A DNA stretch of 64,000 bases from a virus: positions 52,404 to 116,403 of IMG/VR virus record IMGVR_UViG_3300032782_000001. One strand, written 5' to 3'. Shown here piece after piece: positions 46,807 to 47,707 of this stretch. The translations under genes and the position numbers were made by a program. A model generated the notes under the pieces. The model ran no database searches. It was not told where the DNA came from and was given only the letters and a program-made list of their open reading frames with translations. How positions within the stretch are numbered: position 1 is the first letter of the stretch; each line of letters opens with the position of its first letter.

Positions 46807-46928
46807 GGGGATCTTGGGTAATGGTAACCCACTCAGTGTGAAAACTGATCCGGCATCGCACCTCGCCTTTGAAAGAAGGCACCAAGCGGTTCCTACAAGC
46901 TATCCTCGTTCGAATCGAGGGATCCCCA
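46807..46928 (+). tRNA. tRNA-like gene with about 50-nt conserved insert in the variable region (copy 1; anticodon unclear)
   Basis: acceptor ggggatc/gatcccc, D-arm gggtaatggtaaccc, T-arm cctcgttcgaatcgagg, CCA; insert ccggcatcgcacctcgc-[GNRA hairpin]-accaagcggttcctacaagc. Confidence 0.45.
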
Positions 46929-46964
46929 CCAGGCACTCACAAGCCTAGAATTGTGAGAAAGTAT

Positions 46965-47088
46965 GGGGAAGAAGGGCACGGCGCCCAGTCCGCTGTTAAC
47001 GGAACAAACCCGGCATCGCACCTCGCTCTTGAAAGAGAGCATCAAGCGGTTCCTACAAGCTAATCAGGTTCGACTCCTGACTTCCCCG
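46965..47088 (+). tRNA. tRNA-like gene with conserved insert (copy 2; anticodon loop ctgttaa, GTT?)
   Basis: acceptor ggggaag/cttcccc; T-arm tcaggttcgactcctga; CCA; same insert with compensatory changes in the hairpin. Confidence 0.45.
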
Positions 47089-47120
47089 CCAGCCGGTTAC
47101 GGGCTTTAAACGTGACGAAT

Positions 47121-47253
47121 GAGGGACAAGGGCACGGCGCCCACCAGCCATCCAAGCTGGCCGCAAGGCACAACTCGGCATCGCACCTCGCTTTCGCAAG
47201 GAAGCACTCAGCGGTTCCTACAAGCATACCAGGTTCGACTCCTGGGTCCCTCT
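47121..47253 (+). tRNA. tRNA-like gene with conserved insert (copy 3; anticodon loop catccaa, TCC?)
   Basis: acceptor gagggac/gtccctc; perfect anticodon stem ccagc/gctgg; T-arm ccaggttcgactcctgg; 67-nt insert containing gctttcgcaaggaagc. Confidence 0.45.
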
Positions 47254-47288
47254 CGAAGCCTTGGTCACAGGCTTTAAACGTGATGAAT

Positions 47289-47422
47289 GAGGAAGAAGGG
47301 CATGGCGCCCACCCGGTCAATAAAACCGGTGCCTAAAAAGCACCCGGCATCGCACCTCGCTTTCGCAAGGAAGCACCAAGCGGTTCCTACAAGCAAAGTT
47401 GGTTCGAATCCAGCCTTCCTCA
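47289..47422 (+). tRNA. tRNA-like gene with conserved insert (copy 4; anticodon loop caataaa)
   Basis: acceptor gaggaag/cttcctc; anticodon stem ccggt/accgg; T-arm gttggttcgaatccagc. Confidence 0.4.
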
Positions 47423-47449
47423 CCGAGACGTCCATTACGTGCTGCTTAC

Positions 47450-47521
47450 AAGCAAAATGCTCAACGGTAGAGCATCTGATCGGAACTCAGAGAGAAGTGG
47501 GTTCAACTCCCACTTTGCAAA
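47450..47521 (+). tRNA. tRNA (anticodon loop tcggaac; identity uncertain, acceptor end mismatched)
   Basis: D-arm gctcaacggtagagc; anticodon stem tctga/tcaga; T-arm gtgggttcaactcccac. Confidence 0.4.
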
Positions 47522-47586
47522 AATCAGCAGCGCAACTCGGACGTCTCAAACCTTTTGGCCGATCATGAATCGGTCTGACAGATTAC

Positions 47587-47707
47587 GGGGAAATTGGGCA
47601 CGGCGCCCGCCACCTTGAACAAGTGGTTGAATCCGGCACTGCATCTCGGTCCTGTAAGGGATCAATCAGCAGTTCCCACAAGCGAGGTTCGACTCCTCTT
47701 TTCCCCC
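47587..47707 (+). tRNA. tRNA-like gene with diverged insert (copy 5; anticodon GAA?)
   Basis: acceptor ggggaaa/tttcccc; T-arm gaggttcgactcctc; insert shares ccggca...ttcccacaagc with copies 1-4. Confidence 0.4.

Follow-up and report, generated by a model that had tools for sequence, protein, structure and literature searches.

We describe five tRNA-like units, 120 to 133 nt each, encoded on the + strand at positions 46807-47706 of a 64,000-nt stretch of viral DNA (IMG/VR record IMGVR_UViG_3300032782_000001, positions 52,404 to 116,403; "the window" below means this whole stretch). The window looks like part of a huge-phage genome. Each unit carries a conserved two-helix RNA arm at the variable region. 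The five units are apparently members of a previously undescribed family of structured, tRNA-derived RNAs specific to a clade of huge phages, which we call long-arm tRNA-like RNAs. As to function, we lean towards a reading in which the arm is retained in the mature RNA and serves to dock a partner shared by every copy of a genome.

An earlier reading of this DNA by a model, referred to here as the original prediction, had reported five tRNA-like units at these positions, and we confirm them. The acceptor pairs that it quoted are right. In every unit the 7-bp acceptor stem pairs perfectly, the D arm carries GG in its loop, a hairpin occupies the anticodon position, and the loop of the T arm is UUCGA(A/C)U. 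The same architecture appears in the minimum free energy (MFE) fold of each of the five copies. The units and their parts are as follows.

46807-46927, + strand, unit c1 (46807-46931 including discriminator and CCA)
46807-46813 / 46921-46927, + strand, c1 acceptor stem, GGGGAUC/GAUCCCC
46816-46830, + strand, c1 D arm
46833-46848, + strand, c1 anticodon-like hairpin, 6-nt loop GUGAAA
46852-46859 / 46886-46893, + strand, c1 basal helix of the arm
46860-46864 / 46881-46885, + strand, c1 internal loop, ACCUC/ACCAA
46865-46880, + strand, c1 distal hairpin, GAAA loop
46894-46900, + strand, c1 single-stranded motif, UACAAGC
46904-46920, + strand, c1 T arm
46928-46931, + strand, c1 discriminator A and encoded CCA
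46965-47087, + strand, unit c2 (46965-47091 including discriminator and CCA); acceptor GGGGAAG/CUUCCCC, discriminator G followed by CCA
46988-47004, + strand, c2 anticodon-like hairpin, canonical Asn-type loop CUGUUAA
47012-47053, 47054-47060 and 47064-47080, + strand, c2 arm, motif and T arm
47121-47252, + strand, unit c3; acceptor GAGGGAC/GUCCCUC
47144-47160, + strand, c3 anticodon-like hairpin, loop CAUCCAA (A at position 33)
47161-47168, + strand, c3 extra small hairpin, CCGCAAGG
47177-47218, 47219-47225 and 47229-47245, + strand, c3 arm, motif and T arm
47289-47421, + strand, unit c4; acceptor GAGGAAG/CUUCCUC
47313-47329, + strand, c4 anticodon-like hairpin, loop CAAUAAA (A33)
about 47330-47343, + strand, c4 extra hairpin
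47346-47387, 47388-47394 and 47398-47414, + strand, c4 arm, motif and T arm
47587-47706, + strand, unit c5, the most divergent copy; acceptor GGGGAAA/UUUCCCC
47610-47626, + strand, c5 anticodon-like hairpin, loop UUGAACA
47635-47676, + strand, c5 arm with compensatory changes ACUGC/GCAGU
47677-47683 and 47684-47698, + strand, c5 motif and T arm

The extra hairpins of c3 and c4 lie between the anticodon-like hairpin and the long arm, and U8 is replaced by AA in c2 to c4. Three open reading frames (ORFs) that run across the repeats (47112-47336, 47287-47568, and, on the minus strand, 47060-47320) are most likely spurious, as the original prediction had it.

The extra sequence is a single 42-nt arm with two helices and a 5x5 internal loop, followed by single-stranded ACAAG. 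It had been described as an insert common to every copy, which is exact for c1 and c4 (CCGGCATCGCACCTCGC-hairpin-ACCAAGCGGTTCCTACAAGC); c2 (ATCAAG) and c3 (TCGGC, ACTCAG) are slightly changed, and c5 more so. These five occurrences of the two core motifs, each with 0 mismatches, are the only ones in the 64 kb. The original prediction overlooked the pairing of the sequences that flank the hairpin: GGCAUCGC base-pairs with GCGGUUCC as a basal helix, with a C.U mismatch at the third position, and the two strands surround the internal loop (ACCUC/ACCAA) and the GNRA hairpin. The insert is therefore one long two-helix arm. The hairpin variants had been given with the right sequences but with a stem of 5 bp; the stem has 6 bp, because the flanking t/g or c/g also pair. 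A GNRA loop is present in all five window copies, as predicted (GAAA, GAAA, GCAA, GCAA, and GUAA in c1 to c5), but the rule does not extend to the wider family, in which UUCG, UCAC, and UUUA are also found. Together, the 42-nt arm and a 10-nt single-stranded tail belong to a variable region of 55 to 70 nt; the tail includes about 3 more unpaired bases between UACAAGC and the T stem. Family-wide, the arm is 42 to 55 nt long and consists of an 8-bp basal helix, unbroken apart from one mismatch at most, then an open internal loop, and a 5- to 7-bp distal helix that is usually GNRA capped. As had been noted, its length far exceeds that of a type II variable arm and falls far short of that of a group I intron.

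Several likenesses of the arm to known elements were considered and rejected. A resemblance of c3 and c4 to domain IV of signal recognition particle (SRP) RNA (GGAAGCA..CCAAG) was discarded: the bases concerned pair within stems and differ in other copies, and the Rfam SRP models did not match. The CACCUC in the internal loop was rejected as a general anti-Shine-Dalgarno mimic, since only CUC is invariant. By inspection, neither group II domain 5, nor a K-turn, loop E, or 11-nt tetraloop receptor fits the arm.

We tested the pairing on MAFFT alignments of 19 and 63 family members that were blind to structure. With 19 sequences, 91.6% of cells were paired, compared with 70% in column shuffles; with 63 sequences, the values were 86.8% and 62%. 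Sliding the registers by 1 to 3 columns gave 33 to 56%. Changes on both sides were seen at 15 of 19 pairs in the smaller alignment and at 18 of 19 in the larger. In an all-pairs scan of mutual information with average product correction (63 sequences), the top 15 column pairs were all proposed helix pairs; the same scan revealed no tertiary covariation outside the helices. The compensatory changes on which the claim of a functional structure had been based thus extend to the family as a whole.

Conservation is concentrated in the arm and the sequence that follows it. The T loop is invariant, and so are CUC with the next G at the internal loop (5′ side), the second G-C pair within the basal helix, and the A-C-A-N-G that follows the arm as a single-stranded NACA(A/C)G. 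These motifs are invariant across contigs whose proteins are only about 50 to 60% identical. The acceptor stems are perfect over 7 bp in nearly all 63 copies despite widely different sequences. These features argue against decaying pseudo-tRNAs or a functionless dispersed repeat. Odd anticodon loops, noncanonical nucleotides at positions 8 and 33, and the failure of tRNA finders to report the units would fit decay; covariation already contradicts it, and we regard this explanation as hardly credible. We conclude that the extra arm with its ACAAG tail, on a body of acceptor, T, and D arms, is the defining and most constrained element of the family.

Within a genome, arms resemble one another more closely than bodies do. 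The nearest neighbor belongs to the same genome for 25 of 63 arms and for 12 of 63 bodies, and mean identities within and between genomes are 0.73 and 0.66 for arms and 0.64 and 0.61 for bodies. This pattern suggests gene conversion or coevolution with a shared partner.

The search of other phage contigs that the original prediction had proposed yielded 63 distinct copies on about 20 huge-phage contigs, with 2 to 5 copies per contig. The copies were identified with a covariance model of the arm, motif, T arm, and 3′ acceptor strand (R1), searched on loci fetched via EF-Tu and later via a neighboring protein; they score 38 to 93 bits. The window units score 89.8 (c1), 91.6 (c2), 89.8 (c3), 87.7 (c4), and 76 (c5) bits, but all five are in the R1 seed alignment, and these 76 to 92 bits are therefore matches by construction. 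Independent members, at loci L052, L078, and L083 to L105, score 38 to 72 bits, and ordinary tRNAs reach at most about 23 bits, through the T arm. Pattern scans of IMG/VR and JGI metagenome contigs found relatives at L022 (with identical copies at L043), L031/L035, L030, L034, L036, and L042. A viral scan with the full two-sided exact pattern gave no match, and a looser 3′ pattern gave 30 loci, of which 2 (L022 and L030) are genuine. A narrow exact pattern gave six matches in 185,579 GTDB genomes, all by chance and inside coding sequences; since the pattern covers window-type arms only, absence from cellular genomes is not proven. blastn against the INPHARED phages gave no match to the units. 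The 4,227 families of Rfam 15 gave no match on any of the five units, either at the gathering threshold or at an E value of ≤10. Intact units are recognized neither by RF00005 nor by ARAGORN, which called 0 of 63 and whose transfer-messenger RNA (tmRNA) search was also silent. In the literature available to us, which included a review of noncanonical tRNAs and a survey of huge phages and had thin coverage of subscription journals, we found no description of the family; this absence does not prove its novelty.

The same searches bear on two possibilities raised in the original prediction for the insert, a mini-ribozyme and a new kind of intron. No Rfam ribozyme or group I or II intron family matched within 46807-47706 even at an E value of ≤10. 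The arm could still be a small ribozyme that cleaves itself, or a mobile element, of RNA or DNA, that invaded tRNA genes and does nothing for the phage, an idea that draws on the near-identical arms on different tRNA bodies within one genome and on the abundant mobile endonuclease genes in the array. However, all 63 copies have one insertion point and one architecture, and neither target-site duplications nor terminal repeats were seen. Different genomes have orthologous bodies in common, which suggests that whole units were inherited vertically and not formed by repeated insertion. CUC and ACAAG resemble no catalytic core known to us. We consider a ribozyme or mobile element very unlikely.

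The units clearly descend from real tRNAs. They have the acceptor stem, the D arm with GG, a 5-bp T stem with a UUCRA loop, and a CCA-type end. When the arm and ACAAGC were deleted in silico, ARAGORN called 46 of 63 units as tRNAs, including all five in the window: c2 as Asn(GUU), c5 as Phe(GAA), c4 as "Tyr(AUA)," and also c3 and, with its 6-nt loop, c1. The bases that follow the discriminator are CCA in 14 of 63 members, CTA in 12, CCG in 10, and CTG in 10, the same C-Y-R pattern as in the tRNAs of the window (CCA in 17 of 43, CTA in 8, and CCG in 7). Long-arm genes therefore very probably share the 3′ maturation pathway of the array tRNAs.

The anticodon-like hairpin is the least constrained part of the unit. 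Among the window copies, c2 and c5 have a 7-nt loop with U33, c3 and c4 have A33, and c1 has a 6-nt loop. Across the family, U33 is missing from about half of the 7-nt loops, loops of 6, 8, or 9 nt also occur, and U8 is often replaced. No anticodon hairpin is present in five of 63 members (L052 6775-6881 and both L078 copies among them), in which the long arm occupies its place. Many members have a short hairpin at the usual variable-arm position, extended D stems, and small D loops. One arm type is common to units with more than 12 different anticodon-like loops. At locus L034, a close relative that shares the Thr(CGU)...Glu(UUC) synteny, the positional orthologues have different loops: UGGUUAA in place of the GUGAAA of c1 and CAC in place of the GAA of c5.

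These data bear on the chief rival to a docking function, namely, that the units are ordinary decoding tRNAs of several specificities, with an extreme type II-like arm as the tag of a phage-private set. A phage synthetase, elongation factor, or modification enzyme could recognize the tag as an identity or protection element; alternatively, the tag could block anticodon nucleases of the host. Canonical loops do recur across divergent genomes (CUCAUAA, CUCUUAA, CUUCCAC, CUGAAAA, and CUGUUAA among them), with anticodons for Met (CAU), Lys (CUU), Gly (UCC), Phe (GAA), Asn (GUU), and Gln (UUG). The non-U33 loop C(G/A)GUAAA recurs as well, and a GUA loop with G33 or A33 is kept in seven genomes. Perfect acceptor stems, the tRNA-like trailers with CCA, and the EF-Tu, HisRS-like fragment, RtcB, and large tRNA arrays encoded by these phages would also suit decoding. 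On the other hand, it is hard to reconcile with the members that lack an anticodon arm, with the frequent loss of the near-universal U33, with loops of irregular size such as that of c1, with the replacement of U8, and with anticodons that differ between syntenic orthologues. Moreover, the same arrays already have canonical tRNAs with these anticodons, including 23 distinct tRNA-Tyr(GUA) genes in related arrays; the long-arm copies are therefore additional and not replacements, and the idea that they supply a missing tRNA-Tyr is ruled out. We judge decoding as the general role of the family to be unlikely, although it does not conflict with a docking arm for the canonical-looking copies, and some long-arm copies may still decode.

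An alternative that would leave ordinary tRNAs is a new tRNA intron at the variable-loop position, cut by a protein endonuclease, with the exons rejoined by RtcB, which is encoded in the window (16789-17997). Like an intron, the insert is extra sequence that interrupts a tRNA gene, and its deletion yields sequences that ARAGORN accepts. Homing endonuclease genes and a genuine group I intron (45647-45877, 1 kb upstream) are present in the same array, and archaeal tRNAs carry introns at noncanonical positions. However, a group I intron would need more sequence than the insert has, and the units match none of the intron families in Rfam. No bulge-helix-bulge of the archaeal type is visible at the arm base, as judged by inspection of folds and alignments. 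Whatever fixed stretch was excised, the remainder would differ in sequence, range from about 3 to more than 20 nt, and lack a conserved junction, unlike a 4- to 5-nt variable loop. In the five members that lack an anticodon arm, excision would not give a tRNA. The insert, not the anticodon, is the most conserved part of the gene, and purifying selection with covariation over the whole arm and ACAAG is unusual for a protein-spliced intron. We conclude that an intron is improbable. Of the three options in the original prediction, the last is favored here, in which a conserved RNA domain makes these tRNAs into something different.

The units lie in a tRNA array of 44 ARAGORN tRNAs at 45.0 to 62.8 kb of the window, all on one strand. 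The group I intron (Rfam, 76.6 bits) is the sole group I match in the window; on its 3′ side are a tRNA 3′ portion and then an ORF of 180 amino acids (aa) (45941-46483), probably a homing-endonuclease-like gene, with homologues at window positions 57927-58295 and in L034 and L078. Genes for EF-Tu and a GIY-YIG endonuclease are also found amid the tRNAs, along with the following.

54375-55643, within the tRNA array, peptidase M16
60192-60704, within the tRNA array, HNH endonuclease
60942-61559, within the tRNA array, HisRS-like class II synthetase core fragment, 205 aa
61696-62262, within the tRNA array, Rv2179c-like 3′-5′ exoribonuclease

No terminator-like sites were found on the + strand at 44.8 to 49.3 kb, and there is a good promoter-like site at 44872-44899. 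This pattern fits cotranscription of the long-arm units with the array, with promoter and terminator counts both no greater than chance. Upstream of the array are genes for RtcB, NAPRTase, collagen-like proteins, and a protein with a major vault protein shoulder domain. The last of these (868 aa, 30600-33206, minus strand) combines the shoulder with repeat domains (Pfam E value, 4e-29) and is unusual for a phage-like genome; we found no connection between it and the long-arm RNAs.

EF-Tu homologues 55 to 84% identical to that of the window occur on 31 IMG/VR contigs, many of 200 to 620 kb with similar arrays; INPHARED contained no isolated phage closely related to the window. The EF-Tu gene (49184-50486) is frameshifted near codon 373, so that the homologue alignments all end at residue 372 to 380. 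The called ORF finishes in an unrelated tail, and the true C terminus resumes in another frame from about 50331. An assembly error, a pseudogene, and a programmed shift are possible explanations; a split by an intron was rejected, the break being a frameshift.

We compared ORFs across the loci with long-arm RNAs and found a conserved gene cassette directly upstream of the RNAs in L022/L035, L030, L036, L042, L052, and L078, such that the RNA copies directly follow the last gene. The five proteins, in order, and the loci are as follows.

Protein 1, about 620 aa, C-terminal vWA domain
Protein 2, 313 aa, without Pfam domains
Protein 3, JAMM/MPN+ peptidase, intact HSHPGxGxPxPSxxD
Protein 4, about 80 aa, ending in ...RPK(T/S)PFG, sometimes with one further residue
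Protein 5, ThiF/E1-type adenylyltransferase, about 195 aa (Pfam E value, 3e-22 in L052 to 4e-26 in L022)
L022 10928-12649, minus strand, cassette
L030 1-4679, cassette
L036 4447-9697, cassette
L052 378-5581, cassette
L078 152-5584, cassette

In L052 and L078, an ORF for a LAGLIDADG endonuclease is inserted ahead of the ThiF gene. The approximately 80-aa protein looks like a ubiquitin-like carrier. Of 24 IMG/VR cassette loci fetched by homology to the 313-aa protein, 17 have the RNAs 2 to 7 kb downstream of its gene and on the same strand, and another (L103) has them upstream; in all, the RNAs accompany the cassette at 18 of 25 cassette-bearing loci. The vWA and 313-aa proteins each have more than 1,000 metagenomic homologues, annotated as hypothetical or vWA. 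Their AlphaFold models have predicted local distance difference test (pLDDT) values of 79 and 84, respectively. The vWA-protein model matched vWA domains, and the 313-aa model had weak OB-fold-like matches only and none in BFVD. Two assignments were rejected: the vWA protein has no detectable TROVE domain or TROVE/Ro60-like ring that would make it a Ro60-like partner, and the 313-aa protein lacks the PP-loop motif of a TtuA-like thiolase.

We propose that the long-arm RNAs are tRNA-derived RNAs with a docking arm, the simplest mechanism that accommodates everything observed. The RNA would be transcribed within the tRNA array and probably matured like its neighbors, with the 5′ end made by RNase P and the 3′ end by trimming and CCA completion. 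It would then fold into a tRNA-like L, consistent with the 7-bp acceptor stem, the GG of the D loop, and the UUCGA of the T loop. The arm would protrude from the variable region and present the invariant CUC next to a conserved G-C pair, then NACA(A/C)G, and we infer that these together form the docking site for a shared partner, either a protein or another RNA. The tRNA body would give stability, processing, and access to tRNA-binding machinery. What is conserved would be something other than decoding, even if canonical loops may still allow some copies to be charged and to decode. The cassette, with its putative ubiquitin-like protein, ThiF/E1 enzyme, JAMM peptidase, vWA protein, and 313-aa protein, would be the best candidate for the partner. 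It is the only concrete candidate, and a true functional link to the RNAs is possible but distinctly less likely than not. More specifically, the RNAs might be dedicated substrates or cofactors of a phage ubiquitin-like system that grips them by the arm, which we regard as doubtful. One possibility would be sulfur transfer via the ubiquitin-like carrier onto a private tRNA set, by analogy with TtuB/TtuC or Urm1/Uba4; another would be transfer of an E1-activated protein C terminus to the CCA end of the tRNA-like RNA.

Several points weigh against the docking proposal and its link to the cassette. Expression, maturation, retention of the arm in the mature RNA, and the binding and identity of a partner are our inferences from the DNA. 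No known protein-binding RNA motif was recognized in the arm. The canonical loops that recur across distant genomes indicate that some copies may be true decoding tRNAs. The cassette occurs without a strong RNA copy in 6 of the 24 IMG/VR loci and in the GenBank virus Rctr197k. Conversely, the window contains no homologues of any of the five cassette proteins, and the linkage is therefore not universal at the 64-kb scale. Finally, the adjacency may partly reflect conserved gene order, because the tRNA region regularly follows the cassette.

The array contains other tRNA-like elements. A small cloverleaf lies between c4 and c5 at 47425-47545 (Rfam tRNA, 45 bits at 47452-47519), with the odd loop UCGGAAC, a short acceptor stem, and an MFE z-score of -5.7. 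It is enclosed by leader-trailer helices of about 15 bp (GACGUCC.. / GUGCUGCU..AGCAGCGC..GGACGUC), and its leader includes UUACAAGC, the motif of the long-arm units. Similar units are found in L034 at about 945-835 and 660-560 on the minus strand. There are also mini-elements that lack D and anticodon arms and in which a few A/U bases join ACA(A/C)GC to a T arm (R1, 15 to 30 bits), at window positions 48002-48049, L030 4881-4923, L022 10423-10464, and L036 9961-10011; they often lie directly downstream of a long-arm unit. An unannotated element at 45532-45619 (R1, 30 bits) has a 7-bp stem (UCUGAAA/UUUCAGA), a GAAA-capped hairpin, and a canonical T arm, but no D arm.

The largest tRNA arrays of any virus are found in huge phages, and their tRNAs are counted with standard tRNA finders. 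The long-arm family was missed by these finders and by Rfam, although 63 copies with covariation in nearly every pair place it among the best supported of structured RNAs. A tRNA body can thus bear a conserved arm of about 50 nt, which extends the range of natural tRNA architectures well past type II tRNAs and tRNA-Sec. If the long-arm RNAs decode, they would form a private, tagged tRNA set, with a bearing on phage takeover of translation and on orthogonal tRNA design. If they do not, they would be a new class of tRNA mimic beside Y RNAs, tmRNA, and T4 species 1 RNA. If they are substrates of the ubiquitin-like/E1 system, they would represent a virus-encoded RNA-protein system without a described counterpart. 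Their recurrent position beside the ubiquitin-like/E1/JAMM cassette is a concrete, testable lead.

Among known RNAs, class II tRNAs (Leu, Ser, and bacterial Tyr) and tRNA-Sec likewise have an extra paired arm between the anticodon and T stems of the cloverleaf. In tRNA-Ser and tRNA-Sec, the partner enzyme reads the extra arm rather than the anticodon (PMC7609411). However, the class II arm has 10 to 24 nt, is unconserved, and is directly flanked by both stems, whereas the long-arm units have 42 to 55 nt, two helices, an open internal loop, and invariant nucleotides, with about 10 more single-stranded nucleotides, including ACAAG, before the T stem. They often lack U33, some lack the anticodon arm, and they are invisible to the Rfam tRNA model and ARAGORN; they do not belong to class II.

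The T4 species 1 and 2 RNAs (rnaC and rnaD) are also stable RNAs of 119 to 139 nt in a phage tRNA cluster, adjoining a homing endonuclease gene. rnaC has a canonical T arm and an acceptor-like stem at its end, with long inserted hairpins. Neither RNA has sequence similarity to the units; R1 with filters off matches only the T arm of rnaC (13.8 bits), the MFE fold of rnaC has no D or anticodon arm, and the CUC and ACAAG motifs are missing. The record annotation lists the function of the T4 RNAs as unknown. They are the nearest precedent for unexplained tRNA-like RNAs in a phage tRNA cluster and are not homologous.

YrlA and other bacterial Y RNAs consist of a tRNA-like module and a helix that binds Ro60 (Rsr); they are encoded beside their vWA-containing protein partner, often near RtcB, and are present in phages (PMC4201824). 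The long-arm units are also tRNA mimics with a second domain, occur in phages, often near RtcB, and lie next to a vWA gene in the cassette loci. The layout of YrlA is permuted, with the Ro-binding stem at its ends and a closed stem-loop as its "acceptor," whereas the long-arm RNAs end in a normal acceptor with a CCA-type trailer. The units also lack the GNCGAA Ro-binding motif, and the only Y RNA (RF02553) score, 15.5 bits against a gathering threshold of 69, is offset from them.

tmRNA, which is encoded in the arrays of these phages (L051), likewise has an acceptor/T-arm domain with a large insertion. The units differ from it in having no tag frame or pseudoknots, in being one third the size, and in having a D stem and usually an anticodon arm. 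We conclude that the family is most like an extreme type II tRNA or tRNA-Sec, or like Y RNA/YrlA and tmRNA, which pair a tRNA module with a second domain.

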